Positions 319 through 28,724 of a DNA stretch of 64,000 bases are shown piece by piece. How positions within the stretch are numbered: the stretch's first letter is position 1; every line of letters begins with the position of its first letter. This stretch comes from Acidobacteriota bacterium (GTDB taxonomy: Bacteria; Acidobacteriota; UBA890): assembly GCA_965216935.1 (NCBI GenBank), contig OZ244217.1, positions 2,512,741 through 2,576,740 of the forward strand, written 5' to 3'. The notes beneath the pieces are model-generated. The model ran no database searches and was not told the DNA's origin. It saw nothing but the letters and a program-made list of their open reading frames with translations. The position numbers were made by a program, and so were the translations under genes.

Positions 319-1854
319 ATGAGAACACCGAAGCGGTTCTGCGAGTTCCGAATCCGACTCTCCCAGGGCTCGGCCTTCGCCATGTACAACGGCGAGCTGA
401 ATATCCCGGGTGTTCGACACGGACCGCCCACGGACCGGATCGAGTTGGTCAACGAGGGTCTGCGCAAGGATGCGATCGAGGTCCTCAGCAACCTCGTCCA
501 CCGCGAGGGGGCGGGCCGAGAAGAGATCACCCTGCTGGGAGACTTCCTCTACGACCTGCTGTTCCAGGGCGAGATCCGCGACCAGTTCCTCAAGACCTAC
601 GAGGCCGTAACCGCGGACGAGGACTGCGTGCTGCGGCTCGTCCTGGAGTTCAAGGGGGGCGAGGATTTCTCCGAGCTTCCGTGGGAGTACCTGCACCTGA
701 CCGACCTCAACGTGTTTGCCGCGGCCGTCTCGCCGATGGTCCTTTCGCGTCACGTCGAGCTCAAGAAGGAGCTGAAGGAGCCCGACGCCCCCGATCAGCT
801 GCGGCTCCTGGCGGTGGTTTCGAACCCCTCCAACGCCCGCGCTCCGGTCATTGCCGCTCCGATCGTCGACAAGATCCGGAAGATGTCCGAGGCGCATCGG
901 CTCGACGTCCGTTTGTTGGAGCAGCCCACCCGCAAGTCCTTCGAGGAGGCGTTCCGGGATCGCGACTGGCGTCCACAGATCCTGCACTTCTTCGGCCACG
1001 GTCAGTTCGATCCCGTTCGCGGCGGTTCGCTGGCGCTGTGCAAGCCGATGTCGGAGCGAGAGGACTGGCTGCCCGATGACGACCTGGTCGACATCCTCGG
1101 CGAGCGGCGGCGTCTCCGCCTGGTCGTGCTGCAGTCGTGCGAGGGAGCCGCGGGCAACGAGTTCAGCGGCGTGGCGAACAAGCTGGTGCGTGCGGCGGTG
1201 CCCGCGGTTGTTGCGATGCGCTACGAGATCGACAACGATTCGGCCACTTGCTTCGCCGAGACCTTCTATCGCCGTTTGGACGAGGGCTGGCCGATCGATT
1301 CGGCGGTGCAGGCCGGCCGCGAGGCGCTGGTGCGCCTGTCCGACGATGCGCGTCGGTTCAGCGACCGCCGCTTCGGTACCCCCGTTCTCTTCCTCCAGAG
1401 CCGCGACTACCAGACCGATCATCGCCTGATCCGGCCGAGCGAGGAAGGCGCGCAGGGCGCCGAAGCAAGCGGCGCTTCCGCCCGGGATCAGGCGCCGCGC
1501 GCCGTGCACGTCAGCTGTCCCTATTGCGGCAACCGCAGCTCGGTGATCCCCGGACGTAGTGTCTACTACTGCTCCAACGACAGTTGTCGGAGCAAGTACC
1601 GCTTCTGCCCGTCGTGCGGCGACGAAGTCATCCCGTCTGCCGAGGAGCACTGCGACGAGTGCCTGCGCCTGCGTGTCACCGCCGCGGCGGCGGGGCAGGC
1701 CGATCCCGATCGCGGAGAGCGCGGCGTGACGCCCGCGGCGGCTCGAGCTCCGCACGCGCCGGCGGACGACAGGGCGGCCCAGCCGGCCGGCGCGGCGGGC
1801 GACCGGCTCTACGTCGTCCGCGGGCAGGACCGGAGGGATCCGGCCGATGGCTGA
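319..1854 (+). CDS. CHAT-domain (caspase-like) cysteine protease with C-terminal double zinc ribbon
   Basis: Track ORF 304..1854; start set at ATG 319 (ATG 382 also possible). His/Cys dyad in CHAT-type context (ILHFFGHGQF ... LVVLQSCEGA). C-terminal cysteine pairs CPYC / CSNDSC / CPSC / CDEC. No signal peptide or TM segment. G/C-rich third codon positions. Confidence 0.85.
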   Translation: MRTPKRFCEFRIRLSQGSAFAMYNGELNIPGVRHGPPTDRIELVNEGLRKDAIEVLSNLVHREGAGREEITLLGDFLYDLLFQGEIRDQFLKTYEAVTADEDCVLRLVLEFKGGEDFSELPWEYLHLTDLNVFAAAVSPMVLSRHVELKKELKEPDAPDQLRLLAVVSNPSNARAPVIAAPIVDKIRKMSEAHRLDVRLLEQPTRKSFEEAFRDRDWRPQILHFFGHGQFDPVRGGSLALCKPMSEREDWLPDDDLVDILGERRRLRLVVLQSCEGAAGNEFSGVANKLVRAAVPAVVAMRYEIDNDSATCFAETFYRRLDEGWPIDSAVQAGREALVRLSDDARRFSDRRFGTPVLFLQSRDYQTDHRLIRPSEEGAQGAEASGASARDQAPRAVHVSCPYCGNRSSVIPGRSVYYCSNDSCRSKYRFCPSCGDEVIPSAEEHCDECLRLRVTAAAAGQADPDRGERGVTPAAARAPHAPADDRAAQPAGAAGDRLYVVRGQDRRDPADG

Positions 1855-4630
1855 TCCGCCCGACGTAGTGGCCTTGCAGCGCCGTGCGGCGATCGCCGAC
1901 GCCTATCGGGATGCAGCGCTGGCGACCGCGGACATGACGAAGGTCACAGCGGATCTCGTCGGGCTGCAGCAGAAGATCGACGAGGCGGAGCACTTTCTCG
2001 ATACCGGCGAGATGCTCGCCGACCTGGTCGGCGCGGCGTGGGCGCGCCCGGAGCTCGATGCCTTTCGGACGCTTCGTGCTCGTCTCCTGCGCGACTACAC
2101 CCACGCCGAAAGACAGCGGCTGCAGGATTCGGCGTTCGCCACGCCCCGTGCCCGCTGGGAAGAGTTCGTTCGCTCGTTCGCCCGTTGCGTCTCCGCCTGG
2201 AAGCTGGAGGTGTGCGCCGCGCTGGCGACCGTGGACCTGGGCGAGGGCGCGGCCGAAGGGCCACTGGACATGTTTCGTGAACGGGTCGAGTACCTGGTCA
2301 AGGAGCGCTGGGCCGAGGGATACCCGATCTTCGAGTACCTCGCCGAGGCCGACGAGGTGCCGCCCCGGGACCGCGGCCGGATCAACGCGCTGTGCGCGGC
2401 GGTGCAGATCTACTTCTTCGAATCGCCCGACAAGGCCCTGGAGCTCCTGAGCCGGGCCGAGGAGCTGGCTCCGGAGGAATCGATCGTCTACGAGGTCCGC
2501 GGCGATCTTTACATTCATCAGTCGAAGCTCGACGAGGCGAGAGTCCAGCTCGATCGCGCCATGGCCTTGAAGCCGGGCAGCGCCGGTGCGCTCGCCTCGA
2601 TGGGCGACCTGGCGGACAAGGGCGATACCCCCGAGTCGGCCGAGTCCTGGTATCGGGAGGCGATTCGACACCGTCCGGGCAGCTCCACGGGCTACACCCG
2701 CATGTGCCGCTTCCTCGGCCGTCCGGACGTCCCGGAAGAGAAGGCCGCCGAGATCTCCGAGCTGGTGGCGCGCTCGGTGTCGGTCGATCCGCTCGGAGAG
2801 CACACCACGTATCTGTCCGCCGGCTGGGCGTACCAGAGTCGCGACGAAACAGAGGTCGCCCGGGAGTGGTTCGATCGCGCCATCGCCAACGACCCGCTTC
2901 GTCCGGACGGGCACGCGGCGCTCGGCCACCTGCTGCTTGGCAGCGGCGCGATCGACGAGGCGCGCGAAGCGTTCGAGCGAGCCATCGAGGTGGCGCCCGA
3001 GTCGCTGGACGGGCACTGGGGACTCGCCCTGCTGGAAGAGCAGGAAGCGAACTGGGCGGCCGCCGAGGCGAGCTTCCGCAGGTCGCTGCAGGCCCGGCCG
3101 GAGTGGGGCGGGGCGATCATCGCGCGGGCGGCCTACGCGGCGTTTCGACAGGGGGACCGCGAGGCGGCGGTAGAGGAGATCGTCACCGCGCTGATGGCGG
3201 ATCCCGACAACGAGATGCTGCGGTCGTATGCCGAACGCATCGCCGACGAGACCGAAAGCGAGTTCGGCGATCTCGAGGGCGCCGACGCGGTCTACGATGC
3301 GATCGCCGGGGTGCTCGGCGACACGTATTCCGAGCGGCACGGCGAGCGCATCGCCGCATTGCGCGTGTCCGCCGCTCTGCGCAAGAACCGCGAGGCGAAC
3401 GCCCTGTACTCGGCGGGCGACTACAGCGGCTCGATCCCGCTGTACGAGGAGGCCATCGAGCTCGACTTCCACGATCCGGTGTATCACGCCAACCTTTCGT
3501 CCGCCTGGGAGCTTGCCGAGGACGTGCCGGTCGTCGACCGTCTCGACCGCGCGATCGAGTGCCTCGATCGGGCGGCGGCGATGGCCAACGACCCGGACGA
3601 GTACCGCACCCGCCAGCTCCACCTACAGACCATGCGCGAGAGCGCCGCGGTGTACGGCGAGGCGATCAGCAGGTTGCCCGTGGTGACCCCCATCGCCCTG
3701 GAGGTGGGAAACACGATCGTGCCGATGGTGGAGGGCGAAGGCGCAGATCTCGCTCCGCTCGCGCAGGAGCTCATCGAACAGATGCGGGAGAGGGTGCGGG
3801 AAGGCTTCGGCGTGAAGGTCCCCGGGATCCGGATCCGCGTCCGCGAGGGAGCGTCCGACCCGGGTGAGTTCGTCATCCTGCTGATGGAAGTACCGCTCTT
3901 GCTGGGCTCGATCCGCGATGTTCCGCTCGAAGATGATCCGGACGCCTACGAGCGCCACGCCCTCGAGCACATGCTCGGCACGCTCGAGGGGCTCCTCGAG
4001 CGGAACCTCGGTGCCTTTCTCGGAATCGAGGCGCTGGACTCCCTGCTGTGGCAGGAGGCGTCGGAATGGCGCGAGAAGTGGGTCGGCGACACGGACGAGC
4101 TGAGTCGCTTGGAGCGCGTCTTCCGGGCGATGCTCGCGGAGGGCGTGGGAATCCGCCCGATCGGCCCGATCTGCGAGCGCTACGCCGAGCTCCGCCAGAG
4201 CGCCGTGCCGGCGCACGAGATCGTCGAGCGACTGCGCGCCTTGCCGGAGGTGCGCGAGCACCTTCCCGGTGCCGAGGGACATTCCTTCTTCGCCGTGAGC
4301 GACGCGTTTCTCGACGTATTCGAGCGTTCGATCAACACCGCCGACGGACATCCTCTGCTGGCGATGCTGCCGGAGGACTGCCAGGCGACCCTCACCGCGG
4401 TGCGCAACACGGTGACCGGCGAGCGCCCGGAGGCGCTGATCGTCCACCGCCCGGTCTTGCGGCCGTTCGTGCGGCGGCTGCTGGAGTTGGAGTTCCCGAC
4501 CCTGCCGGTGCTGGCGGCAAGCGAGCTGGCGGACGCGGAGGCGGCCGTTGTCGACACCGTCCGAATGGACGGCGAGGACAAAGCCCCTGCCGCGACCGAT
4601 CGGCAGCTCGGGACCGGAGGCGAGGGATGA
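1847..4630 (+). CDS. TPR-repeat protein fused to a soluble FlhA/SctV-like cytoplasmic domain (FlhAc-like)
   Basis: ATG 1847 overlaps the CHAT stop by 8 nt (ATGGCTGA). The middle ~400 aa are TPR-like helical repeats (e.g. EANALYSAGDYSGSIPLYEEAIELD). The C-terminal ~310 aa (approx 3670-4600) match conserved FlhAc blocks: IALEVGNTIVPMVEG, GFGVKVPGIRIRVREG..GEFVILLMEVP, FRAMLAEGVGIRPIGPICERYAEL, HRPVLRPFVRRLLELEFPTLPVLAASEL. No TM export-gate region. Confidence 0.85.
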   Translation: MADPPDVVALQRRAAIADAYRDAALATADMTKVTADLVGLQQKIDEAEHFLDTGEMLADLVGAAWARPELDAFRTLRARLLRDYTHAERQRLQDSAFATPRARWEEFVRSFARCVSAWKLEVCAALATVDLGEGAAEGPLDMFRERVEYLVKERWAEGYPIFEYLAEADEVPPRDRGRINALCAAVQIYFFESPDKALELLSRAEELAPEESIVYEVRGDLYIHQSKLDEARVQLDRAMALKPGSAGALASMGDLADKGDTPESAESWYREAIRHRPGSSTGYTRMCRFLGRPDVPEEKAAEISELVARSVSVDPLGEHTTYLSAGWAYQSRDETEVAREWFDRAIANDPLRPDGHAALGHLLLGSGAIDEAREAFERAIEVAPESLDGHWGLALLEEQEANWAAAEASFRRSLQARPEWGGAIIARAAYAAFRQGDREAAVEEIVTALMADPDNEMLRSYAERIADETESEFGDLEGADAVYDAIAGVLGDTYSERHGERIAALRVSAALRKNREANALYSAGDYSGSIPLYEEAIELDFHDPVYHANLSSAWELAEDVPVVDRLDRAIECLDRAAAMANDPDEYRTRQLHLQTMRESAAVYGEAISRLPVVTPIALEVGNTIVPMVEGEGADLAPLAQELIEQMRERVREGFGVKVPGIRIRVREGASDPGEFVILLMEVPLLLGSIRDVPLEDDPDAYERHALEHMLGTLEGLLERNLGAFLGIEALDSLLWQEASEWREKWVGDTDELSRLERVFRAMLAEGVGIRPIGPICERYAELRQSAVPAHEIVERLRALPEVREHLPGAEGHSFFAVSDAFLDVFERSINTADGHPLLAMLPEDCQATLTAVRNTVTGERPEALIVHRPVLRPFVRRLLELEFPTLPVLAASELADAEAAVVDTVRMDGEDKAPAATDRQLGTGGEG

Positions 4631-6255
4631 GCGCCAAGGTGAAGCTGCCCGTCGCCCTGCACATGGGCGAGACCTTGCCGGTCGATCCGGACGGCGTTCG
4701 GGCAGCGATCGAGGGCTACGCCGAAACCTTGCTGGACAGCCTGGAGATCCCGGCCGAAGTGACGGTCGAGCTGGTCTCGGGTCCCCTCGAAGATCTTCCT
4801 TCCGGCGACGCGTCCTTCATCACCGGCCGCGAGGCGTCGGGCCTGACGCGGCACGACGAGGACGGCCGGCTCACCGCCGAGAGCGCCGCCCAGCTCGGCG
4901 CGATGGCCGTGTGCGACGGGCGCTGTCAGCTGGTGACGGCCGCGGTCGTCGACGCCGTGTGGAAGGGCTGGACCGGTGGGGAGTCCGGCGACGCCCCGGC
5001 CGGGCTGGCGGAGGCGTTGCGAGACGCCGTCCGCTACGGCGTCTCGCTCGAGAAGGTTCGCGCCGCCTGGGAGGGGTCGGCCGATCCCGACAACGTCGAC
5101 ACGTTCCGCGTCGCCGTCGACCGAGCCCTGGATGCCCGCGGCAAACCGTTGGCGCGCCTGGCCATGGGCCGCGAACTGTACGCCCGCTGCTTCGATCCGG
5201 CCACCGACGAGCCGCTGCAGCCGGAGGGCGAAGACGATCCGCTGGACGTCATACAGTCGAACATGGTCGACGGGCTCTTCTACTCGCTCGGCATGATCGT
5301 CGAGGTGGAGATCGAGCCCGATGGTGGGCTCGAGCCCTTCGGGTTCTCCACGTCCTTCTACGACCTGCCCGGTCCGCCGATGTCGAACCTCGCCGAGGGG
5401 GAATTCCTGGTCAACGAGATTCCCTCGCGGCTGAACATGCTCCACATCGAGGCGCGGGCGGTGGTCAACCCCGCCAACGGGTCGGAGAACGCCGTTGTTT
5501 CCAGTGCGCGCGACGCGGAGGCATGCCGCGAAGTCGGCGGGTACACCACATGGGGCCAGGCTTCGTACGCGGTCCTCTGCGCGTCCGCGCACGTCCGCCG
5601 CAACGCCGCGGCGTTCATCGACGGTCGATTCGCCCGCCTGTATCTGGCACGGCTGGGGAGTGCCTTTCCGACCCTCGTGCGCGCGATCGACGAGCGGTTC
5701 GACCGTGGATTGATCACCGGGGTGCTGCGTGGCCTCATTGAGGAAGAGATCTCGATCCGCGATGCGCGCGGCATCATGGAGGGGCTGCTGGCGGTGCAAG
5801 GTGTCAGCTCGGTCGATCACGGCCGTTACATCGTGTTCGATCCGTTCACCGAGCGTCGCTGCCCGGTGCCCGCGGGCAGGACACTGGAGGACCTGAGGGC
5901 GCCCGAGTACGCCGAAGCGGCCCGCGGCGCCCTGCGCGATTTCATCTCCCACAAGCACACGCAGGGGGCGAGCTCGCTGCTCTGTTTTCTGGTCGACCCG
6001 GCGATCGAGGCCGAGCTGCAGCAGCCCGAGCCGCTCACACCTTCCCGTCGCCGGGAGATCATCCGAGCCGTATACGAGGAGGCCGGAGGGCGGCCGGGCT
6101 GGTCCAGCCAGCCGGTCATCCTGACGACCGTGTCGGCGCGCAAGCGCATGCGCCGCCTGGTCGAGGCCGAGTTTCCCGAGCTACCCGTGCTGTCGTACCA
6201 GGAGCTTCGACCGGACATGAACATCCAGCCGATCGCCCGCATCAGCGTCGATTGA
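4627..6255 (+). CDS. Stand-alone FlhA/SctV cytoplasmic-domain-like protein (second FlhAc paralogue)
   Basis: ATG 4627 overlaps the upstream stop (ATGA). The upstream part of track ORF 4048..6255 is an Arg-rich out-of-context extension. FlhAc-like blocks: LPVALHMGETLPVD, ITGVLRGLIEEEISIRDARGIMEGLLAV, ARKRMRRLVEAEFPELPVLSYQELRPDMNIQPIARISV. No TM segment. Confidence 0.8.
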   Translation: MSAKVKLPVALHMGETLPVDPDGVRAAIEGYAETLLDSLEIPAEVTVELVSGPLEDLPSGDASFITGREASGLTRHDEDGRLTAESAAQLGAMAVCDGRCQLVTAAVVDAVWKGWTGGESGDAPAGLAEALRDAVRYGVSLEKVRAAWEGSADPDNVDTFRVAVDRALDARGKPLARLAMGRELYARCFDPATDEPLQPEGEDDPLDVIQSNMVDGLFYSLGMIVEVEIEPDGGLEPFGFSTSFYDLPGPPMSNLAEGEFLVNEIPSRLNMLHIEARAVVNPANGSENAVVSSARDAEACREVGGYTTWGQASYAVLCASAHVRRNAAAFIDGRFARLYLARLGSAFPTLVRAIDERFDRGLITGVLRGLIEEEISIRDARGIMEGLLAVQGVSSVDHGRYIVFDPFTERRCPVPAGRTLEDLRAPEYAEAARGALRDFISHKHTQGASSLLCFLVDPAIEAELQQPEPLTPSRRREIIRAVYEEAGGRPGWSSQPVILTTVSARKRMRRLVEAEFPELPVLSYQELRPDMNIQPIARISVD

Positions 6256-6319
6256 TCGGCGATGGCGTCGCACGGCCGCTCCGGCGGGCGGCGACGTCCA
6301 CCAACCCGAGCACGAACCG

Positions 6320-7714
6320 ATGACGATCGAACCCGTTCCCGGCACTCCCTTCGACTACTACCTGGTCTCCTACGACAAGCACGGGCGTGAGTACAACGAT
6401 CCCGAGGGCATGAACGGCCTCATGTCCCTGCGCATCGAGCGGGACATCGCCGATCACGGCATCACCGACGTGTTCTTGCTGTCGCACGGCTGGAAGGGCG
6501 ACGTTCCTGCGGCCAAGTCGCAATACGAGGCGTGGATCAAGGCGATGGCCGATTGCGGCGAGGACGTCGAGAAGGTCCGCGCACAGCGACCGGGCTTCAA
6601 ACCGTTGATTATCGGATTTCACTGGCCCAGCTTGCCGTGGGGCGACGAGTCCTACGGCGGGATTTCGTTCGCGGCGGGCGGTGCAGACGCCGGCCCGCCG
6701 GTGAGCGAGCCCGAGGATCCCGTCAGGGCGCAGATCGATGCGGCGGCCGAGAGCATTGCCGATTCTGCCGCGGCGCGCCAGGCATTGGAAACGATCTTCG
6801 CCGCCGCGCTCGACGACATCGCCCCGGACAACCTGCCGCCTGCGGTCGTTTCGGCCTACGAGACGCTGGCCGCCGAGGCCGGGCTCGAAACGGGCGGGGA
6901 TCTGGGGGCGGCCCCGGGTGACGACGTGGCGGCGTTCGATCCCGAGGCGTCGTATCAAACGATGCTCGAGCTCGAGGAGGACATCTACTACGGCGACTCG
7001 TCGATCGGCGGAGGCATCCTCGGCGGACTGCGCCAGCTGTCCTTCTGGAAGATGAAGAAGCGGGCCCGATCGATCGGCGAGTCGAGCGCCGCGACGTTGA
7101 TCCGACGCCTGCAAGAGATCGGCACCGACGGCCCGGGTGGTGACAACGTGCGGTTCCACCTGATGGGTCACAGCTTCGGCTGTATCGTCGTGTCCGCGGC
7201 GATCGCCGGCCGCGACGGCGACGAGCCTTTGGTGCGACCGATCGACTCCGTGCTGCTGGCGCAGGGGGCGCTGTCGCTGTGGGCGTACTGCAGCGATATT
7301 CCGGTCGCGCCGGGCAAGCCGGGGTACTTCTCCTCGATCGTCGCCGGCGGGAAGGTCGCCGGCCCGCTGGTGACGACGCAATCCATGCACGACACCGCCG
7401 TCGGTGTGCTGTACCCGCTCGCGGCCGGCGCCGCCTTCCTCGCCGCCGACGCCGTCGCCTTCGACTTCGACCCCACCCGGCCGCCCAAGTACGGGGCCCT
7501 CGGCACGTATGGCATCCAGGGGCCGGGCGTCGACCTCGATCGCCGGACCATGGGCCCGGTCGATACCGATTACGAGTTCGTTGGCGGACGGGCATACAAC
7601 GTCGAGGGCAGCGGCGTGATCAACGAGGGCGGCGGCGCCTCCGGGGCGCACAACGACATCGCCAAGCCCGAGGTAGGGCACGCATTCTGGAGCGCGATTC
7701 TGGCCGCTCCCTGA
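6320..7714 (+). CDS. Alpha/beta-fold serine hydrolase (lipase/esterase-like), cytoplasmic
   Basis: Track ORF 6320..7714. GxSxG nucleophile elbow (HLMGHSFGCIVV), an early HG motif (FLLSHGWKGD), and candidate Asp (SMHDTA) and His (GAHNDI). No signal peptide. Lies 64 nt downstream of the FlhAc-like gene on the same strand. Confidence 0.8.
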   Translation: MTIEPVPGTPFDYYLVSYDKHGREYNDPEGMNGLMSLRIERDIADHGITDVFLLSHGWKGDVPAAKSQYEAWIKAMADCGEDVEKVRAQRPGFKPLIIGFHWPSLPWGDESYGGISFAAGGADAGPPVSEPEDPVRAQIDAAAESIADSAAARQALETIFAAALDDIAPDNLPPAVVSAYETLAAEAGLETGGDLGAAPGDDVAAFDPEASYQTMLELEEDIYYGDSSIGGGILGGLRQLSFWKMKKRARSIGESSAATLIRRLQEIGTDGPGGDNVRFHLMGHSFGCIVVSAAIAGRDGDEPLVRPIDSVLLAQGALSLWAYCSDIPVAPGKPGYFSSIVAGGKVAGPLVTTQSMHDTAVGVLYPLAAGAAFLAADAVAFDFDPTRPPKYGALGTYGIQGPGVDLDRRTMGPVDTDYEFVGGRAYNVEGSGVINEGGGASGAHNDIAKPEVGHAFWSAILAAP

Positions 7715-7987
7715 GCCCGGCGTGAGTCGCTCCCTTGACGGTTGTCCCGGCGGCGTGGTCCGATCGGGTCTCCGGCGTTCGTGATTGCGGCGCCCCCGCA
7801 CGGGTAGCTTCCGATTCGGGCGTCGTTGTCGATCGCGAGGCCGGATTACATGGGGACCGCTTCGGTGTGAGCGCGCTTTCGGGTGCGATCCGGCCGGCGG
7901 TCCCTTTTCGATGGGCGAGGTTGCACGGCACCAGCGTCGCCGGAACCCCGGGAGGATCCCGGGTGGGGACCGGAAAGGACTCGTCGT

Positions 7988-9178: not shown

Positions 9179-9194
9179 GCGCGGGTGCGGCGCA

Positions 9195-9240
9195 CCGGCG
9201 GGGAGACGAGTTCTCGTTTCCCCGCCGGCGGTTTTCTTGC
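9195..9240 (+). terminator. Rho-independent terminator after the trypsin-like gene
   Basis: 15-bp stem CCGGCGGGGAGACGA / TCGTTTCCCCGCCGG (one G-U pair), loop GTTC, followed by the T-rich CGGTTTTCTTGC. It starts 17 nt after the stop at 9178. Confidence 0.65.
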
Positions 9241-9316
9241 CGGCGCTCTTACCCGCCGGCGCTCACTCTCGCAGGCTCGTTCCACCGTCCGCGTGTCCGC
9301 GGCTCTCGCTGTTCGT

Positions 9317-11290: not shown

Positions 11291-11380
11291 TGCGCGATGC
11301 TCCTAGGTCCCCAAGAGTTCGCGATGAGAGCCGGCTGCCCAGGGTCTCGCGGGAGATCCGAAGCACCCTGCTGCATCTTG

Positions 11381-11467
11381 GATATACCGTGGCGCGGCGA
11401 GTGTCCAGGGGAGCGGGCTGCCGCCGGCCCCGGATCCCTGGACACCCTCTCGCCGTTTGCCCATAAT
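11381..11467. promoter_or_regulatory. Divergent sigma70-like promoters sharing a 10-bp perfect inverted repeat (S41 <-> S8 intergenic)
   Basis: Inverted repeat GTGTCCAGGG (11401-11410) / CCCTGGACAC (11436-11445). Plus strand: TGGACA (11439-11444) - 17 nt - CATAAT (11462-11467), about 90 nt upstream of the S8 ATG. Minus strand: TGGACA (11407-11402) - 15 nt - TATATC (11386-11381), facing the S41 gene. Confidence 0.4.
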
Positions 11468-11554
11468 GGCGCCACCCGGGCCGGCGGCCCGGCCCGGTTG
11501 GGGACCCGGAACGACGCGCCCGCTTGCCGCGCACACGACAGGTCCGCGAACCGC

Positions 11555-13639
11555 ATGGCTGATCGTCGCGATTTCTTCGAGAATCTCGTCTACCAGACGG
11601 TGGATCGGCGGCGGTTCACGCAGCAATCGCCCGTGATGCCGGACGTCTGGATCCACTACGGCATGAATCCGGGCGAGCAGCAGCATCTGCTGATGGTCCC
11701 GGACTGGCACTACACGCCCGCGGCCCTGACCGGCGGGATCAAAGAGCGGCTGTCCGGGGACCGCGATAACGCCCGTCTGAGGCGCTTCCGGCTGGTCCCG
11801 CGCAACCCGGAGCCGGCCGCGGTGGCGCACAACCAGAGCGCGGTGGTGGCCACGCTGTGGTTCGACCAGCTCATCCGCGCCGTGCTTCCTTTGAGCGGCT
11901 GGTGGCGGGACGCCATCGCCGGCACACGTTCGCGTCGCGACAGGGATCGGCTGCACCTCGCCCTCGAAAACAAGGGCGCGCTGGTCACGTCGCTGGTGAC
12001 GGCATGGGGCGGCGACGACGCGAGGAAGGGGGCGGGTCCGGCTCGCCGCGGCGGAGCCCGTAGCGCCGGAGGCGAGCATGATGATGCCGGCGGCAGGCTT
12101 GCCGGAGGTCTCCCGCTCAGCGCCGACGTCCTCTGGCTCACCCGCGTGGCCGGCTTGCTCGCCTTCATCGCGACGAAAGCGCAGCGCGACCGCTTCGGCA
12201 AGCTGCGCAGCGAGAACAGCAAGGTCGAGCTTCTGCAGGGCTTGCTGGAAAAGAAGAACCACCGCAAGCTCGCCGGCGCGCTCGTCGACATCCTGACCGA
12301 GTCGGCGCCGGCGTACCCCGGCGACAACTATCCGCTGTATTCCGTCAACCGGAACCGTGAGACCTCTACCAGCCTGCGGGACTCGGTTGCGGCGGTGAAG
12401 GCCGACGCATCCAACCGGGTGTTCCAGGTCCGCGGCGAGGGCATCCGCTGGGCGGTGATCGACTCGGGCGTCGACGCGCGGCACGTCGCCTTCCGCCGCC
12501 GCAACGCCGACGGCGTGCCGCGGCGGCAGCCCTTCAGCCGGCCGCGACGACGGCGTCGGGCCGCGGCGGGCAGCACGCCGGGCGCCGAGGGCTTCTTCGT
12601 CAACGACACCCGGGTCGTGGCGACCTACGACTTCGTGCACATTCGCGAGTTGCTCGGCACCGAGCCGGAAGAGGTCGATGCGCTCCCGGAGGAGCGATTC
12701 CCGGCGCTCGCCCTCCCCGGAATGCGGCAGAAGCTTCGCGAGCTGATCGAGGACTACCACACCGGCGTCATCGACTGGCAGCGGCTGCAGCCGTTCCTCG
12801 AGATCCGCCACACGCCGAAGGCGTACCGGCCGCCGGTCGATCGCCACGGCACCCACGTCGCCGGGATCATCGGGGCGGACTGGCGTACGAGCGACGAAGA
12901 GGTCGACCTGCCGGGGCCGCGCCGGGAAATGACCGGCATGTGCCCCGAGATCGAGCTGTACGACCTGCGGGTGCTGGGTGATGACGGCACCGGAAACGAG
13001 TTCGCCATCATGTCGGCGATGCAGTTCGTTCGGGCGCTGAACACCGAGAAGGACTTCATGGCGGTTCACGGGGTCAACTTGAGCCTGTCGATCCCGCACG
13101 ACGTGGCGAACTACGCCTGCGGACGAACCCCGGTGTGCGAGGAGGCCGAGCGCCTGGTCGGCAACGGTATTCTGACGGTCGCCGCCGCCGGCAACAGCGG
13201 ACGGGCGCGCTACCTGACGCCCTCCAACGAGATCGACGACGGATTTCGCACCGTCAGCATCACCGATCCGGGCAACGCCGAGTCGGTGGTCACCGTCGGG
13301 GCAACCCACCGGCGGGATCCCCATACGTACGGGGTGAGCTATTTCTCCAGCCGCGGACCCACCGGGGACGGCCGCCTGAAACCCGACCTGGTCGCACCCG
13401 GGGAGAAGATTCGCTCGACCGTTCCCGACGATCGCGACGATCGCCTGGACGGCACCAGCATGGCCGCGCCCCATGTGAGCGGCGCGGCGGCGCTGATCAT
13501 GACGCGCCATCGGGAGGTGATCGGGCAACCCGGCAAGATCAAGGAGATCCTCTGCCGATCGGCGACCGACCTGGGCCGCGAGCCCTACTTCCAGGGGGCC
13601 GGAATGCTCGACATCTTGCGGGCGCTACAGGAGATCTGA
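11555..13639 (+). CDS. S8 subtilisin-family serine peptidase with ~330-aa non-catalytic N-terminal region, no signal peptide
   Basis: In frame with track ORF 10727..13639, whose upstream part is antisense to the S41 gene; start at ATG 11555. Asp (WAVIDSGVDARH), His (HGTHVAGIIGA) and Ser (GTSMAAPHVSGAAALI) triad. Confidence 0.85.
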   Translation: MADRRDFFENLVYQTVDRRRFTQQSPVMPDVWIHYGMNPGEQQHLLMVPDWHYTPAALTGGIKERLSGDRDNARLRRFRLVPRNPEPAAVAHNQSAVVATLWFDQLIRAVLPLSGWWRDAIAGTRSRRDRDRLHLALENKGALVTSLVTAWGGDDARKGAGPARRGGARSAGGEHDDAGGRLAGGLPLSADVLWLTRVAGLLAFIATKAQRDRFGKLRSENSKVELLQGLLEKKNHRKLAGALVDILTESAPAYPGDNYPLYSVNRNRETSTSLRDSVAAVKADASNRVFQVRGEGIRWAVIDSGVDARHVAFRRRNADGVPRRQPFSRPRRRRRAAAGSTPGAEGFFVNDTRVVATYDFVHIRELLGTEPEEVDALPEERFPALALPGMRQKLRELIEDYHTGVIDWQRLQPFLEIRHTPKAYRPPVDRHGTHVAGIIGADWRTSDEEVDLPGPRREMTGMCPEIELYDLRVLGDDGTGNEFAIMSAMQFVRALNTEKDFMAVHGVNLSLSIPHDVANYACGRTPVCEEAERLVGNGILTVAAAGNSGRARYLTPSNEIDDGFRTVSITDPGNAESVVTVGATHRRDPHTYGVSYFSSRGPTGDGRLKPDLVAPGEKIRSTVPDDRDDRLDGTSMAAPHVSGAAALIMTRHREVIGQPGKIKEILCRSATDLGREPYFQGAGMLDILRALQEI

Positions 13640-13642
13640 AAC

Positions 13643-14851
13643 ATGGCGACGGTGTTTACGCTGGAAGCCGTATTCGCGCGCAAGGGCGACGCGCTGCTGC
13701 TCCACTACGGGCCGTGGGAAGGCCCCGACTGGATCCTCGTCGATGGCGGGCCGCCGGGAGTCTACAAGAAGTTCCTGCAGCCACGGCTCGAGCAGCTCCG
13801 CGACGAGTTCGAGATTCAGGCCGACGACCCGATTCCCTTCGAGATGGTCATGGTCAGCCACATCGACGACGATCACATCGCCGGCGTGATCGACCTGTTC
13901 GAGGACATCGACGACGCCAAGACGAGCAATCAGCCGGCGCCGTATCGGGTCGAGAAGCTGTGGAACAACACCTTCGACGATCTTCTCGACAACGACGAGG
14001 AGGAGATCGTCTCGCGTATGGCCGCGACGGCGGCGTCGTCCAGCGCCGCCAACGGGTTGCCGCTGCCGAACATGACGCGTGAATCCCGCGCGGTGGTGGC
14101 GACCACCAGGCAGGGGCGAGACCTGCGAAACCTGGCCAAGAAGCTGCAGGCGAAGGTCAACGATCCCTTCGAGGGTCTGATCATGGCCCCGGCTTCGGCG
14201 GCAATCGCCTTCGATCACGGCCTGACCTTCACGGTGATCGGTCCGCTCGAGCATCGGGTACGTGCCCTTCAGGTGCAGTGGGACAAGGACGTGAAGAAGA
14301 TCCTCGAGGACGAGGCGAACGCCGGTCAGTCCGCCGCCTTCGGCGACACGTCGCCGTTCAACCTGGCGAGCATCTGCGTCCTCGCCGAGATGCAGGGCAA
14401 GTCGATGCTGCTGACCGGCGATGCGCGCGGCGACTTCATCATCGAGGGGCTGGAGGAGGTCGGGCTGCTGCAGGATGGCGACACGTTCCACGTCGACGTG
14501 TTGAAGATGCCTCACCACGGCAGCGACGAGAACGTCGAGGTGTCGTTTTTCGAGCGCGTCACGGCCGATCACTACCTCATTTCGGGCAATGGCGACCACG
14601 GGAATCCCGAGAAGACCACGCTCGAGATGATCGAAGAAGCCCGCGGGACGGACGAGTACACCGTTCACTTCACCTTCACCGAAAGCGCACACCTGACGGA
14701 CACCAGCCAGAAGCGACGAAAGGCGCTGAAGAAGATCACCGACTGGGTGGCGCAGAAGCCGGACAACTGCTCGGTCGTGTTCCAGGACGACGACGACGAG
14801 GTCCAGTCGGTGTACGTGGATCTGCTGGACCCGCTTTTCGAGGAGGAGTAG
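13643..14851 (+). CDS. Metallo-beta-lactamase-fold hydrolase, ComEC/Rec2-type MBL domain
   Basis: Track ORF 13643..14851, beginning 3 nt after the S8 stop. Motifs ILVDGGP, VVSHIDDDHIAG (HxDxDH variant) and VLKMPHHGSDEN, as in ComEC-like MBL domains. No signal peptide. Confidence 0.85.
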   Translation: MATVFTLEAVFARKGDALLLHYGPWEGPDWILVDGGPPGVYKKFLQPRLEQLRDEFEIQADDPIPFEMVMVSHIDDDHIAGVIDLFEDIDDAKTSNQPAPYRVEKLWNNTFDDLLDNDEEEIVSRMAATAASSSAANGLPLPNMTRESRAVVATTRQGRDLRNLAKKLQAKVNDPFEGLIMAPASAAIAFDHGLTFTVIGPLEHRVRALQVQWDKDVKKILEDEANAGQSAAFGDTSPFNLASICVLAEMQGKSMLLTGDARGDFIIEGLEEVGLLQDGDTFHVDVLKMPHHGSDENVEVSFFERVTADHYLISGNGDHGNPEKTTLEMIEEARGTDEYTVHFTFTESAHLTDTSQKRRKALKKITDWVAQKPDNCSVVFQDDDDEVQSVYVDLLDPLFEEE

Positions 14852-14985
14852 ACAGGGGGCCACGGGGATGTGGCGCGAGCGGAGTGACACACGGAGGACC
14901 GGGCGTGGTCCGATCAGACTGACACCGGAGGAGGCGGGGATTCGGGGGCGTGGCCCGCGAGGAGTCACACAAGGAGGAGAGTTTC

Positions 14986-16143
14986 ATGAGCGAGAATGGC
15001 CCTGATGTCGATCCCCGGGTTGCCTCCCCGGTCGACCCGGACAGTGCCGAGAAAGCCCCCAAGCTGCAGGACGGAATCGCCCTGTGCCTGTCGGGGGGTG
15101 GCTATCGGGCGATGCTGTTTCACCTCGGCACGTTGTGGCGGTTGAACGACGTCGGCTATCTGCCGCGCCTCGATCGAGTGTCGAGCGTCTCGGGAGGATC
15201 GATCACCGCCGGGGCCCTGGCGATGAGCTGGGGAAAGCTGAAGTTCGCCGGCACCGGTCGGGCGTCGAATTTCGTCGGCGAGGTTGTTCGCCCGATTCGC
15301 TCGCTCGCGAACCGGACGATCGACGTTGGTTCGGTGATCAGCGGGGCGCTTCTTCCCGGGTCGATCAACGACAAGGTCGAGGGGAAGTACCGTCGGCACC
15401 TGTTCGGCGACACCACCTTGCAAGACCTGCCGGACACGCCGCGGTTCGTGTTCAACGCGACGAACGTGCAGTCGGCGGTGCTGTGGCGATTCTCCAAGCC
15501 CTACATGGGTGACTATCGGGTCGGGCGGGTCGTGAGCCCGACCCTGGGGCTGGCGCAGGTGGTGGCGGCGTCCTCGGCCTTCCCGCCGGTGTTGTCGCCC
15601 GCCGAGCTCGATCTCGATCCGGGCTCGTTCACCTCCGGAACCGACTTGAAGGACCCGGCGTTCCGCCACGAGGTCGTTCTCAGCGACGGCGGCGTGTACG
15701 ACAACCTCGGCCTCGAGACCGCCTTCAAGCGTTACCAGACGTTGCTGGTGAGCGACGCCGGGGGCCGGATCGCTCCCGACGACGATCCACCGCGGGACTG
15801 GGCCCGGCATATGGTGCGCATCCTCGCCATCGTCGACCACCAGGTGCGCAACCTGCGAAAGCGGCAGCTCGTCGGCGCGTTTCGTGCCGATGTGCGCTCC
15901 GGTGCCTATTGGGGCATCCGAACGCCGATCCGCAAGTACTCGGCGAAGCACAAGCTGCACGTCCGCGACGACCGATCCTCCGAGCTCGCGCTGGTGCCGA
16001 CGCGCTTGAAGCGCCTTGAGGCCGGCCTGCAGGAGCGACTGATCAACTGGGGGTATGCGATCACAGACGCGGCGATGCGCACCTGGGTCGATACCGACCT
16101 GAAGCCGCCGAAGAGCTTCCCGTACCCGAAGGTGGGCGTGTGA
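14986..16143 (+). CDS. Patatin-like phospholipase
   Basis: In frame with track ORF 14950..16143. ATG 14986 is preceded by AAGGAGGAG. Motifs: LSGGGYRAM (oxyanion), VSGGSI (GxSxG Ser), SDGGVYDNLG (DGG Asp). Confidence 0.9.
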   Translation: MSENGPDVDPRVASPVDPDSAEKAPKLQDGIALCLSGGGYRAMLFHLGTLWRLNDVGYLPRLDRVSSVSGGSITAGALAMSWGKLKFAGTGRASNFVGEVVRPIRSLANRTIDVGSVISGALLPGSINDKVEGKYRRHLFGDTTLQDLPDTPRFVFNATNVQSAVLWRFSKPYMGDYRVGRVVSPTLGLAQVVAASSAFPPVLSPAELDLDPGSFTSGTDLKDPAFRHEVVLSDGGVYDNLGLETAFKRYQTLLVSDAGGRIAPDDDPPRDWARHMVRILAIVDHQVRNLRKRQLVGAFRADVRSGAYWGIRTPIRKYSAKHKLHVRDDRSSELALVPTRLKRLEAGLQERLINWGYAITDAAMRTWVDTDLKPPKSFPYPKVGV

Positions 16144-16153
16144 GCGATCCTTC

Positions 16154-19100
16154 ATGCCGCTGACCTTCAAGAAGAACAAGAGCCTGCTGACCGGCCCGGG
16201 ACAGCGGCGCGGGCTACCGCCCGTCGACCTGGAGCTCGAGGCGACGGCCGACAACGATCCGGCGACCGCCGACGCCTTGTTGCGCAACGATCCCTTCCCG
16301 AAGCTTCCGCTCAGGCTCGGCCGGGCGTCGGTCAAGGTCGATGCCGACGAGGAGGTCTCGTTCGGAAACGGCAAGGCGAAGACGAGCTTCTCCGCCGGCG
16401 TCGGCGTGTTCGCCGAGCTGGGCGTGTTCATGACCTCGAAGGCGGCGTTCAAGGCGGCGGCGATCAACGGAGCGATGTTGCCGGCGTTGTCCGTCGAGCG
16501 GGCCGAGACGGCGGAAGGCGCCGACGGGGGTGGGGCGGGCGGAGAGGCGGGCGGAGAAGCGGGCGGAGAAGCGGGCGGAGAGGCGGGCGGAGAAGCGGGC
16601 GGAGAGGCGGGCGGAGAGGCGGGCGGAGAGGCGGGCGGGGGGCCCCGGAAACTTGTCTACGCCGTGATGCAATCGGGGTACTCGCTCGCGGCCGAGGTCG
16701 ACGCGTCGATCGCTCTGGCTCCGGGATTCGTCCCCAGTCTGGAGACCTCGGCCGGCCGCTCGCGCGATTTCGCCGTGATCCGGGCTGTCGACGCGGAGGC
16801 CGGCTCCCGGGACGTCGTCCAGGATTTGCTGGACTCTTGGCGGCTGCCGCGCCAGGTGAACGAGGCATCCGACCTCGAGCCCGGCACGTGGATCGTCGCC
16901 GAGGTCGACGGCTCGTTCGCGCTCGGCCTCGAGGCGCGATACGGCTACACGTACAACTGGGTGAAAGCGGCGCGCCTGGGTGGCCTCTCCGGCGATATCG
17001 GCCTGAAGATCGAGCTCGGGGCCGCCGCGTCTCTGGGGTTCTCGGCCAGCGGCAAGTACGCCCTGGTGATCGGTCGTGCGTCCATGCAGCAAGACGACGA
17101 GCGACTCCGCGTGCGCCTGCATCGCCTGCAGCAGAGTGGGTGGAACTTCGCCTTCGACGCCTCGGCCGGCTTCACCGGTGACACGAGCGGCTTCTTGCCG
17201 GAGGAGTACGACAAGCTCGTGGCTGCGGTCTTCGGGCTCGACCCCGGCCAGCTCGTCGACGACCTCCGTCGCTGGACCGATCCGGCCAACGCCCTCCCCG
17301 ACCTGATTGCCGGGGAGAGCATCGACCTGGCGCACGAGGTGCTCACCGATCTCACCGGAATCGACGCGAAGGCGGAGTTCGCTCGGGCGCAGAAGAAGCT
17401 GCGTGAGCTGCTGGATCGCTGGGACGGTCTTCCGGGCGAGGTCGCCTCGCGCATCTGGGAGACGTTGCCGCACGCCGACGAGATCGAGCGCGTCGCCGAG
17501 GTCGCCCGGCAGATTGCCGAGGCGGATTCCAACGCGGCGAAGGCCCGGGTGATGGAGCTGATCGAGAAGCTCCTGGAGGAGATCGACTTCTTCGACACGC
17601 CGGTCGGCAAGTGGGTGCTTGCCGTGGCGATGAACCGGCCGCTGGAGCTGCTCGCCGCAGGGGTCGACTCCGAGCGCTTCAAGGAGTTCCAGGCGATCGC
17701 CGCCAGGACGGCTGCGATTCTCGACGGTTCCGAGGTCGCGGCAATGCTCGGCAAGTTCCACGCGCTGGTGTCCGAGAGGCTGCGGATCGACCTGCTTCGC
17801 GACCTCAACAAACGCGAGTTCGATGAGCTCGACGACTGGATGAAGGCGAAGCTGAGCCAGTTCATCGGCCGCAAGATCGACTTCTCCGAAATCGACAAGG
17901 TGCGCCGTGCGATCAAGGTCATGGACGACAACGCCGCCGCCTTCTACGAGAAGACGATCGCCGCACTGAACCGCAAGTACGAGCTCGCCTTCGCCTACAG
18001 GTTCCAGAGCGCGACGACGAAGACCGCCCTGATCGACGTGACCCTGGATTTCGCGGAGGGCAATCTGGGCGCTGCGCTGCGGCGGATGATCGCGGGAGAT
18101 TTCGACACGCTGCTTACCCGGCCGCAGAAGGGGATCACGCTCCACGTCGGCGCGCTGACCCACGGGATCGAGCGCCGGACGTCGGTCGATCTGACCATGC
18201 CGTGGATCAAGAAGAGCACCGTTTCGCGCTCCGAGGCGGTGGCCGAGCTCGACGTCGTGGACGAGGATGACGGTCGCCTGTTGATGTACGCCGGTGCGGC
18301 GAGCAACAAGGTTACCGAGGTAACGACCGTGGGCGCCGCCCAGTCGTACCGGGTCAGCGCGTTCGCCGTCGCTGCTCGACTTCCGGTGATGGTCGGCGGT
18401 GCGGCGAGGCGATCTGCTGGGGCGTCGGGTGGGACATCGAGTGGAGCTTCGAGTGGGGCGCTGACCGGCGCGTCGGGTTCGGCGGTCGGTGGAGGGTCGG
18501 GTACGGGGCCCTCGCGTGGCCTGCGGGTACATGGCGGGAGCTCGTTGGAGGCCTCCTATACGTACGCGGTGGCCGCTCCCGAGATGGTCATCGAGGACTT
18601 CATCAGCCACTTCGGCCCCTACGTTCGGGCTTACTTTCCGCGTCAGTTCGACAACGACGAAGCCCCCCGCTTCGGGGTCTGGGCGACGGAGCTCGACCGC
18701 AGGATCGACGCCGACCCGGACACTGCGAACGGGCCGCGCCTGTTCGGCGACACGCTCGTGCGGCTGGCGGTGGCGCTGCCGCCGGATACCGGCTCCGTCT
18801 GGTTCGAGGGGCCGACCCGGAAGACGGCTCCCGCGTACCGGGCGATGTCGCTGCGGATTCAGCAGGCCATGCGCGATCTGCTGACCTTCTACTACTTCGC
18901 CGACCCGCGGAACTTCCGCAACCGACTCGCCGCCCACGCCCTGCTGATGTACGCGGCGACCCCTCCGGCGAACGGCCTGAGGCTCGAGGGCGACAAGATC
19001 AAGAAGACCACTCACGCGATTCACTGGGATTGGCCGAACAACAAGCTACGTCGCGCGGTCTTGAACAGCAGTGCTACCGCCGAGCGCCTCGCCGCCGCCT

Positions 19101-19690
19101 TGCAGGTGGTTCGCGACCGGTTGGAGGGATTCCCCGACGCCGCCGGGTTCGCCGATTTGTACGACAGCACCGATCGCGTCCGCCGCACGCTCGTCGACCG
19201 GAACGCCGTCACCCTGCTGAAGTCGCTGTACCGGATGGAATCGATCGCGACACGCCGGGCCGCCGAGGCCGCAGTGCACGGAGCGGAGTTTCGGCGTGAC
19301 AAGGATGCGCGACCGGCGGACGCCCTCGAGGCGCTGGCGAAGTTCGGCGTCGTCGTCACCAGGGCGTTCAACGACGACCTGGGCACCGGGAAGGCGTACG
19401 GCTCGGCCGCGCTGCGTCCCCTGGGGGCGCTGGTGTACGTCGAGGCGATGCGGGCCTTGCAGGAGCGAACCCGCGGCTCGGCCGCCCCGGGATCCGTCCC
19501 GCCCGGAACCGCCGGCCGCGCCGGTGCGTCCGCCCCGCGGGGACTCGCCGGCGGCCCGGCCGGCTTGCCGCTGGCGACGTTCCAGCTCGAGGTGTTGCGG
19601 CGGGGCGTCGCCATCCCGGAGACGTTTCCCGACCACGAGCCGTTGCAGAGGGACGCGCTCGCCGTCCGTGAGCGGATCGTCAACGTCTGA
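16154..19690 (+). CDS. Large (1178 aa) protein of unknown function; beta-rich N-terminal region, helical middle and Gly/Ser-rich linkers
   Basis: Track ORF 16154..19690, 10 nt after the patatin stop. Codon-3 G/C bias is consistent with coding. I recognise no catalytic motif. Contains an (GGEA)x8 repeat and a GASGGTSSGASSGALTGASGSAVGGGSGTG linker. Confidence 0.75.
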   Translation: MPLTFKKNKSLLTGPGQRRGLPPVDLELEATADNDPATADALLRNDPFPKLPLRLGRASVKVDADEEVSFGNGKAKTSFSAGVGVFAELGVFMTSKAAFKAAAINGAMLPALSVERAETAEGADGGGAGGEAGGEAGGEAGGEAGGEAGGEAGGEAGGEAGGGPRKLVYAVMQSGYSLAAEVDASIALAPGFVPSLETSAGRSRDFAVIRAVDAEAGSRDVVQDLLDSWRLPRQVNEASDLEPGTWIVAEVDGSFALGLEARYGYTYNWVKAARLGGLSGDIGLKIELGAAASLGFSASGKYALVIGRASMQQDDERLRVRLHRLQQSGWNFAFDASAGFTGDTSGFLPEEYDKLVAAVFGLDPGQLVDDLRRWTDPANALPDLIAGESIDLAHEVLTDLTGIDAKAEFARAQKKLRELLDRWDGLPGEVASRIWETLPHADEIERVAEVARQIAEADSNAAKARVMELIEKLLEEIDFFDTPVGKWVLAVAMNRPLELLAAGVDSERFKEFQAIAARTAAILDGSEVAAMLGKFHALVSERLRIDLLRDLNKREFDELDDWMKAKLSQFIGRKIDFSEIDKVRRAIKVMDDNAAAFYEKTIAALNRKYELAFAYRFQSATTKTALIDVTLDFAEGNLGAALRRMIAGDFDTLLTRPQKGITLHVGALTHGIERRTSVDLTMPWIKKSTVSRSEAVAELDVVDEDDGRLLMYAGAASNKVTEVTTVGAAQSYRVSAFAVAARLPVMVGGAARRSAGASGGTSSGASSGALTGASGSAVGGGSGTGPSRGLRVHGGSSLEASYTYAVAAPEMVIEDFISHFGPYVRAYFPRQFDNDEAPRFGVWATELDRRIDADPDTANGPRLFGDTLVRLAVALPPDTGSVWFEGPTRKTAPAYRAMSLRIQQAMRDLLTFYYFADPRNFRNRLAAHALLMYAATPPANGLRLEGDKIKKTTHAIHWDWPNNKLRRAVLNSSATAERLAAALQVVRDRLEGFPDAAGFADLYDSTDRVRRTLVDRNAVTLLKSLYRMESIATRRAAEAAVHGAEFRRDKDARPADALEALAKFGVVVTRAFNDDLGTGKAYGSAALRPLGALVYVEAMRALQERTRGSAAPGSVPPGTAGRAGASAPRGLAGGPAGLPLATFQLEVLRRGVAIPETFPDHEPLQRDALAVRERIVNV
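16538..16633 (+). repeat. In-frame 12-nt tandem repeat (GGCGGAGARGCG x8) encoding (GGEA)8
   Basis: Read directly from the sequence; only the A/G in the GAR codon varies between copies. Confidence 0.9.
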
Positions 19691-19777
19691 CGGTCGAACG
19701 TTCGACGGCGAGCCGACCTGCGGGACGCCGGCAGAGGCGCTGGCCGTGGTGGGGCCTTCTTGCCGCGTTGGTCCGCC

Positions 19778-28675: not shown

Positions 28676-28724
28676 ACCGAGGTCCGCTCTTGCGCCGTCG
28701 ATGGCGATGTGTTCTTATTCGAGC

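Follow-up and report, generated by a model that had tools for sequence, protein, structure and literature searches.

Positions 319-19690 of a 64,000-nucleotide stretch of an Acidobacteriota genome (contig OZ244217.1; the whole stretch is called the window below) carry a dense run of genes for proteases, lipases and other hydrolases, and the question raised by this locus is whether these genes act together as one system, belong to several smaller ones, or simply happen to be adjacent. The original prediction left two possibilities, a defence or conflict island and one multi-effector system. The reading that fits best is a defence-island-like cluster of separately conserved modules, and not one multi-effector system, because the modules recur separately in other genomes and the homologues of two more of its genes, G5 and G6, have unrelated neighbours. 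In particular, we consider it reasonably probable that the block comprises at least three independent protease-centred conflict modules, M1 (G1-G4), M2 (G7-G8) and M3 (G9-G10), probably involved in abortive infection or cell suicide, and two orphan cytoplasmic proteases, G5 and G6. The support for this is sequence analysis throughout; we infer the immune role, and the mechanisms suggested below, from gene anatomy and from experimentally studied analogues.

As the GC content of the window is about 68%, genes were called by frame analysis of GC at the third codon position (GC3) instead of the length of open reading frames (ORFs). The block then contains ten genes, nine of them on one strand and separated by short gaps; they are listed here with the gene just beyond the block and two intergenic elements (lengths in amino acids, aa).

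G1, positions 319-1854, plus strand: CHAT (caspase-like) protease with C-terminal zinc ribbons, 511 aa.
G2, positions 1847-4630, plus strand: tetratricopeptide repeat (TPR) array and membrane-less FlhA/SctV cytoplasmic (FHIPEP_C) domain, 927 aa.
G3, positions 4627-6255, plus strand: N-terminal domain of about 200 aa and a complete FHIPEP_C, 542 aa.
G4, positions 6320-7714, plus strand: CHAT-associated alpha/beta-fold serine hydrolase, 464 aa.
G5, positions 7988-9178, plus strand: trypsin-like serine protease with a strongly basic N-terminal tail, orphan, 396 aa.
Hairpin, positions 9195-9228, between the convergent G5 and G6: 15-bp GC-rich stem and T-run, probable terminator.
G6, positions 9317-11290, minus strand: S41 peptidase with a basic N-terminus, orphan, 657 aa.
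Sigma-70-like promoter match (10 of 12 positions), positions 11439-11467, plus strand, upstream of G7: consensus match only.
G7, positions 11555-13639, plus strand: S8 subtilase with an N-terminal extension of about 290 aa, 694 aa.
G8, positions 13643-14851, plus strand: ComEC/Avs1a-type metallo-beta-lactamase (MBL)-fold nuclease, 402 aa.
G9, positions 14986-16143, plus strand: patatin-like phospholipase, 385 aa.
G10, positions 16154-19690, plus strand: protein of an unannotated family, 1178 aa.
G11, positions 19952-22405: exported metalloprotease just beyond the block.

The hydrolase-dense block is real: Pfam, NCBIfam and PADLOC profiles confirm the CHAT, trypsin-like, S41, S8, MBL and patatin enzymes, while G4 is identified by its motifs, and the catalytic motifs are intact in every enzyme of the block. 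All eight members listed in the original prediction stand, but two large genes, G2 and G3, which occupy 4.4 kb of the block and are its most unusual ones, had been overlooked. By our own estimate, which takes about 3% of the genes of a bacterium to encode peptidases, a run of ten genes with five peptidase clans is more than expected by chance.

The complete M1 cassette recurs, with argC and argJ after it, on a Logan contig (L134). Its four products there are a CHAT protein of 510 aa, a TPR-FHIPEP_C protein of 919 aa, an FHIPEP_C protein of 550 aa and a homologue of G4 of 475 aa, which share, respectively, 48%, 51%, 48% and 64% identity with G1-G4. The triad of CHAT, TPR-FHIPEP_C and FHIPEP_C genes is also present in a Heimdallarchaeota metagenome-assembled genome (MAG; L004), in Smithella (L027) and on two further contigs (L046 and L047). 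In the locus binned as Heimdallarchaeota (positions 6434-12898, 32% GC) the three proteins have nearly the same sizes as in the window (499, 931 and 543 aa), and a 161-aa TPR protein follows. The pair of FHIPEP_C genes alone was observed in Anaerolineae, Pyrinomonadaceae and Povalibacter; in the Anaerolineae locus (L001) a LmuA/Avs1a-type MBL gene is situated downstream of the pair, in place of the G4 homologue, which looks like effector swapping. Orthologues of G2 are found in L134, L004, L001, L046 and L027, and none of the triad or FHIPEP_C loci examined contains counterparts of G5-G10 of the window. G5 was considered as a member of M1 and ruled out, because the L134 cassette stops after G4 and the homologues of G5 have other neighbours.

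Two of the triad loci (L046, positions 398-4806; L027, positions 2702-3589) have, directly upstream of the CHAT gene, a gene for a protein of about 297 aa with no Pfam domain, 44% identical between the loci; in L046 an eCIS_core (DUF4157) gene is situated further upstream. The 318 bp upstream of G1 in the window contain no equivalent of the 297-aa gene.

By sequence, both G2 and G3 are homologous to the cytoplasmic domain of the FlhA/SctV export gate but lack its membrane part. G2 matches the Pfam profiles TPR_2 (1e-24) and FHIPEP (2e-18, profile positions 457-654), G3 matches FHIPEP (8e-21), and searches of PDB sequences with the two proteins retrieve the cytoplasmic domains of CdsV, YscV, FlhA, EscV, InvA and SsaV. 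A profile built from 35 G3-like proteins aligns with residues 64-385 of the 387 of Chlamydia CdsV_C (6wa6; E=1.3e-64) and has further matches to FlhA, InvA, MxiA, EscV and SsaV, so that the family shares with the export gates an essentially complete cytoplasmic domain (SD1-SD4). Unlike in the export gates, the eight-helix membrane domain is absent from G2 and G3, as judged by the Kyte-Doolittle hydrophobicity heuristic that served as the export and membrane test here in place of SignalP (membrane-span threshold 1.6), and flagellar or injectisome export genes occur neither among G1-G11 nor in the related loci examined. An exhaustive HMMER search over 1.84 billion representatives yielded 1792 relatives (405 at 1e-30 or below). 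None of the best 149 related clusters has a membrane-rich region, whereas canonical FlhA/SctV controls show 6-8 spans; hence there are at least 149 membrane-less clusters, defined at 50% identity. G3 itself is a singleton at 90% identity, with the best match among 5.8 billion clusters being 40% identical, and a contig scan revealed no relatives of G3 in viral contigs. The TPR region of G2 weakly resembles the type III secretion system (T3SS) chaperone LcrH/SycD (1.7e-8, below the cut-off).

A further difference from the export gates lies in the fusion or linkage partners of the domain, which are TPR, CHAT, STAND NTPase or FGE-sulfatase. Equivalents of G2 and G3 are fused in other genomes into proteins of 1320-2097 aa with TPR and two FHIPEP_C domains; other architectures are DUF4118 with two FHIPEP_C domains and FHIPEP_C with FGE-sulfatase (P0210). 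A Thiodiazotropha MAG (L003, positions 739-5220) encodes a 1493-aa STAND NTPase (nSTAND1/AAA_16) with a C-terminal FHIPEP_C recognized by Pfam, followed by two more FHIPEP_C genes, and a betaproteobacterial MAG (L005, positions 524-4477) encodes a 1317-aa full-length homologue, likened to it by alignment at 37% identity. Only in these distant relatives is an NTPase linked to FHIPEP_C. That G2 and G3 could be a split or pseudogenised FlhA is ruled out by the conservation of the architectures with TPR, CHAT and STAND, and by intact ORFs in many taxa. We also observed a conserved 879-aa unknown protein 3' of the STAND-FHIPEP_C gene in L003, and further FHIPEP_C-coding sequence downstream in both L003 and L005.

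The protease of the module, G1, matches Pfam CHAT (8e-24) and PADLOC SAVED_CHAT (8.5e-14) and carries the His/Cys dyad of the caspase superfamily (HFFGHG at 223 and QSCE at 272). These motifs and three CxxC pairs (400-448) are kept in the CHAT proteins of L134, L046, L027 and L004. The last gene of M1, G4, has no Pfam match, and its family, with at least 2362 homologues of about 440 aa, shows no Pfam domain among the 120 listed. G4 has SHGW and GHSFG motifs; SHGW, GHSxG and the triad of Ser285, Asp358 and His444 are invariant in 28 homologues. The AlphaFold2 (AF2) model of G4 (pLDDT 83.6, pTM 0.89) gave only non-significant alpha/beta-hydrolase and lipase matches in a fold search against the PDB, and no relatives of the family were found in viral contigs by the contig scan. 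G4 homologues adjoin a CHAT protein in all five distinct contexts sampled. One is located 5 bp before a CHAT-NACHT protein, amid DarT/Macro, ParE, PIN and Fic genes, and another overlaps an 1812-aa CHAT-nSTAND1-WD40 protein. In L214 (positions 5209-13341) an operon comprises a gasdermin, a G4-family hydrolase, a 478-aa protein with a faint Peptidase_C25 match, CHAT-SIR2 and nSTAND1-WD40; thus, the G4 family is found inside a gasdermin-type cell-death locus.

These contexts resemble systems already described. An earlier study noted that, in the conflict systems it describes, caspase-superfamily domains always have an alpha/beta-hydrolase gene next to them (Kaur, Burroughs, Iyer & Aravind 2020, PMC7159879). 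M1 shares with the systems of that study (VMAP/MoxR-vWA, GAP1-GTPase, EACC1) the CHAT His/Cys dyad and an alpha/beta-hydrolase in one operon, TPR repeats, the lack of export signals and the patchy distribution, as well as the location of G4 homologues beside CHAT-NACHT and CHAT-nSTAND1-WD40 proteins, G4 being likened to their hydrolases by class and position and not by family. Unlike in these systems, the core of M1 is formed by two NTPase-less FlhA/SctV-domain proteins and not by MoxR-vWA, a GTPase or STAND. With gasdermin-CHAT operons (Johnson et al., bioRxiv 10.1101/2021.06.07.447441) M1 has in common a CHAT protease and a putative dormant executioner in one operon, and L214 places a G4 homologue within a gasdermin/CHAT-SIR2/nSTAND1 operon; however, no protein of the block matches Bact_GSDM, and the candidate executioner in the window is a serine hydrolase. 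Full-text searches for literature linking FHIPEP or FlhA to CHAT, caspase, STAND, defence or phage gave nothing relevant, and FlhA/FHIPEP is not mentioned in Kaur 2020 (PMC7159879, which does not mention T3SS either), in its 2021 sequel or in a 2026 STAND survey. The CHAT/soluble-FlhA_C cassette appears to be undescribed in the literature searched.

The cytoplasmic domain of FlhA/SctV is ring-forming. G2 and G3 may likewise assemble into a hetero-oligomeric platform, in which the TPR array of G2 would sense the trigger or recruit partners and the platform would activate the CHAT protease G1. G1 would then act together with G4, or cleave it, with G4 as the executioner, mirroring CHAT-gasdermin and caspase-nuclease systems. 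A broader suggestion, which we regard as tentative, is that soluble FlhA/SctV cytoplasmic domains, either alone with TPR or fused to STAND NTPases, constitute an unrecognised class of oligomeric immune platforms, where a ring would detect a protein of invader origin and switch on a CHAT protease and a hydrolase or nuclease executioner. If this is true, Bacteria would have an 'apoptosome' made from a part of a secretion machine, and so would Asgard archaea, provided that the MAG is binned correctly. The caspase-centred cell-death systems of prokaryotes would gain with M1 a new type of sensor or scaffold, a membrane-less export-gate domain, and M1 and would show a secretion-machine domain reused for intracellular signalling. 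Genome annotations are probably misleading here, as the membrane-less family is currently labelled solely as 'FHIPEP family type III secretion protein'.

The second module combines a subtilase and an MBL nuclease. G7 matches Peptidase_S8 (9e-40) and the PADLOC 'subtilase' profile (1.5e-42) and has the Asp, His and Ser motifs. Its full-length orthologues, 39-48% identical, are found in six loci (L140-L145) from Thermoanaerobaculia, other Acidobacteriota, Conexibacter and Skermanella, and in five of the six (L140-L144) a G8 orthologue (40-46% identity) directly follows the S8 gene. The pair occurs without the other modules of the block in L140-L143, and the genes flanking the S8(-MBL) loci vary from locus to locus; in Skermanella two trypsin-like genes flank the S8 gene and, after a small ORF, there is a Cas3 helicase gene. 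G8 matches Lactamase_B (7.5e-7) and, weakly, ComEC (3.8e-5), and has HIDDDH and HHGS motifs. Its homology to defence MBL nucleases extends over the full length, with PADLOC matches to LmuA (2e-46, end to end, positions 4-323 of 345), Avs1a (3e-33) and the reverse transcriptase-associated MBL (RTasMBL, 9e-30). Its NCBIfam match to Avs1a (6.5e-45) is under the curated equivalog cut-off (153 vs 420 bits). In the Arg/Ala/Gly-rich low-complexity part of the N-terminal extension of G7 we observed two tandem copies of a 43-bp repeat (12489-12574).

ComEC-like MBL nucleases were shown experimentally to be pro-enzymes whose gating loops are cut by partner proteases, which activates them (2025 Science, PMC12799240). 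The activating partners in that study are trypsin-like (Hachiman, AVAST, Lamassu) or caspase (Canu), and subtilases are not mentioned. G8 is similar to the MBL proteins of these pairs (Hachiman HamM, AVAST Avs1a/Avs1b, Lamassu, Canu CanABC) in that its gene directly follows that of a co-conserved protease, a likeness drawn from the genes alone, with G8 below the Avs1a equivalog cut-off. It differs in that the partner is an S8 subtilase and not a trypsin or caspase, and in that Pfam and PADLOC reveal no HamAB, Avs STAND, LmuB/C or CanB sensor among the neighbours. By the same protease/pro-nuclease logic, G7 would cleave and activate the putative pro-nuclease G8, representing a new protease class in this role. 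M2 thus suggests that the principle of protease-activated pro-nucleases extends to subtilases.

In the third module, G9 is a patatin (2e-19) with GGGYR, SVSGG and DGG motifs; its orthologue in the closest MAG (L159) is 82% identical, and in Conexibacter (L144) a 54% homologue follows the S8-MBL pair. G10 has no match in Pfam, NCBIfam or PADLOC. A protein search gave a family of 25 homologues of about 1050 aa, 28-66% identical and with no Pfam domain; an exact-pattern genome scan with G10 gave no matches, so that the homologues come from the protein search alone. In six contexts the neighbours of G10 homologues are of effector type and change from genome to genome: a TIR_2-TPR-S protein, TPR-CHAT, a divergent PGAP1-like lipase, Peptidase_C1, and NACHT with a 152-aa protein, in addition to the patatin of the window, and no similarity was found among these partners. 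G10 may be the constant component of the module, and the patatin G9 its exchangeable effector; M3 would then represent modules in which one large unannotated protein stays the same and its partner is swapped between TIR, CHAT, patatin and lipase. The AF2 model of G10 (pLDDT 73.8) contains beta-hairpins of 20-27 residues and helical bundles; the fold search against the PDB gave no match at E<0.2, only beta-barrel noise. G10 exceeds its homologues in length by about 100 aa, and a 12-bp tandem repeat (8.8 copies, 16534-16638) encodes (GGEA)n in a segment modelled with very low confidence. Being compact operons of two to four genes, M1-M3 are directly testable by heterologous expression.

Another repeat, with the 22-bp unit CCGGGCGAGTGCGCGCGGACCC in 4.3 copies, is located in the G10-G11 intergenic region (window positions 19776-19869). 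At the equivalent place the closest MAG (L049) has, on the other strand, a membrane gene of hemolysin-III-like type, whose translation is repetitive too.

G5 and G6 are orphans without a conserved partner. G5 matches Trypsin_2 (4.6e-4) and has the His/Asp/Ser motifs TVSHA, DYVV and GQSGGP; its homologues in soil metagenomes (46-77% identity) adjoin RTX-repeat proteins and proline racemase, and not G4. G6 matches Peptidase_S41 (8.9e-16) and, in its N-terminal part, is CPAF-like (1e-17). G6 shares 62-70% identity with homologues in Nitrospirota, Alpha- and Gammaproteobacteria and 55% with one in an Acidimicrobiales MAG; the neighbours of these homologues are unrelated. Both convergent genes encode basic tails, with 22 and 12 K/R, respectively, in the first 60 residues (7988-8170 and 11110-11290).

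G1 and G2 overlap by 8 bp, and G2 and G3 by 4 bp (ATGA start/stop); the spacings are 65 bp for G3-G4, 4 bp for G7-G8 and 11 bp for G9-G10. Together with the hairpin at 9195-9228 and the promoter-like site upstream of G7, this suggests three transcription units: G1-G4(-G5), G6 and G7-G10. All-against-all BLASTP revealed no adaptor (EAD-like) domain common to the ten proteins, just the FHIPEP_C similarity of G2 and G3 and one weak low-complexity match between G4 and G5.

The products are predicted to be cytoplasmic. Within the first 45 residues of G1-G10 no 10-mer has a hydrophobicity score above 1.65, against 3.1 for G11 and other exported proteins, and there is no signal-peptide-like h-region in any of G1-G10; by the same heuristic G11 and further exported or membrane proteins of the window stand out clearly. 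This bears out the earlier contrast between the eight listed proteins, all without signal peptides, and the clearly exported ones, such as the metalloprotease at 19952. No convincing membrane span was found in G1-G10 (the membrane proteins of the window score 1.8-2.6), the marginal segments just above the threshold being G4 361-381 (1.74) and G7 188-206 (1.64).

Acidobacteriota MAGs encode proteins that share 75-88% identity with G11. In the closest of these (88%) the end of G10 is situated upstream of G11, and on another contig the G9 orthologue is located, divergently, beside an S41 paralogue (44%). This MAG has no S8-MBL pair between the S41 and patatin genes and no G1-G5 beyond the S41 gene. 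The region is thus variable between the window and the closest MAG. G11-anchored synteny was rejected as a test of the island borders, because the 75-83% relatives carry neither the block nor the downstream genes, and only the 88% MAG is informative.

Three other explanations have to be weighed against the modular one. We consider it very unlikely that the block is one integrated multi-effector system, where a CHAT/FlhA_C sensor would govern G10 and all seven hydrolases encoded downstream, which together would form a jointly regulated suicide arsenal. The common strand of nine genes with short gaps, the fact that all the enzymes look active and cytoplasmic, and the protease cascades known in conflict systems (PMC7159879) would fit it; however, L134 has G1-G4 only, L140-L143 have S8-MBL only, patatin and G10 occur in the closest MAG in the absence of S8-MBL and G1-G5, G6 is encoded on the other strand and separated by a strong hairpin, a promoter-like site precedes G7, and a shared adaptor domain is lacking. 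Therefore, this half of the original prediction is not upheld. Recognition of export substrates and chaperones is the established, and presumably ancestral, role of FlhA_C/SctV_C, which brings up a hydrolase arsenal secreted or delivered by a non-Sec route for predation, competition or nutrients, with soluble FlhA_C as a cytosolic platform for substrate sorting or chaperones. The weak LcrH/SycD likeness of the G2 TPR, the RTX (type I secretion-type) proteins beside G5 homologues, the eCIS_core gene in L046 and the DUF4118 membrane domain of a relative (P0177) are in its favour. We nevertheless find it quite unlikely, as the block contains no membrane channel, ATPase or other secretion component, the triad occurs in the Heimdallarchaeota MAG and Smithella without secretion genes nearby, the partners of FHIPEP_C (CHAT, STAND NTPase, Avs1a-type MBL) are intracellular immune components, and the downstream hydrolases are not co-inherited with G2 and G3.

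The genes could also be ordinary ones for cytoplasmic proteolysis, for housekeeping of lipids and nucleic acids or for development, adjacent by happenstance. CHAT/HetF-type proteases act in cell differentiation too, and G1 matches HetF, although over the CHAT domain only (7e-20, far below the cut-off). The composition of the block equals that of the host genome, with no mobility genes; G6 is highly conserved across phyla, and orthologues of G9, G10 and G11 are present in the closest MAG as well. On the other hand, G3 has only a 40% best match among all the clusters searched, while its neighbour G11 has 88% relatives, and the modules are patchy, cross-phylum and cross-domain, with defence-type partners. 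We consider this explanation unlikely.

Several observations weigh against the modular reading itself. No complete catalogued defence system was found in the block by PADLOC-DB v2, which gives single-protein or single-domain matches for G1, G7 and G8 only, besides marginal ones for G2 (PrimPol, 2.1e-3) and G9 (phospholipase effector, 2.5e-3), and none for G3-G6 and G10. The related M1 loci examined have no obvious defence-island setting, nor is there a defence-type context in the examined neighbourhoods of G5 and G6 homologues. Pfam and a motif scan detect no NTPase domain or Walker A motif in G1-G10, which is unusual for regulated conflict systems. The membership of G9, with G10 or with G7-G8, is ambiguous, because in Conexibacter (L144) a patatin follows S8-MBL and G10 is absent. 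Few neighbourhoods were sampled (five contexts for G4, six for G10), and the comparison of relative genomes rests on fragmented MAG contigs. Finally, there are no mobility genes at the borders of the block and no compositional shift: GC is flat along the window, about 0.65-0.70, the GC3 of the block genes passing the calling filter (0.80-0.89) is the same as in the rest of the window, and the window has neither tRNA genes nor Rfam RNA matches. Mobility is thus unsupported, as the original prediction had itself noted; its view of a defence or conflict island holds insofar as conflict hallmarks are present in three sub-clusters and the region is variable, but not in the sense of a complete known system.

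Further along the window, at 28709-32142, a small gene overlaps by 4 bp a gene for a 987-aa predicted multi-span membrane protein. The arrangement and the start sequence give the impression of a BlaI/BlaR1-type repressor-sensor pair.

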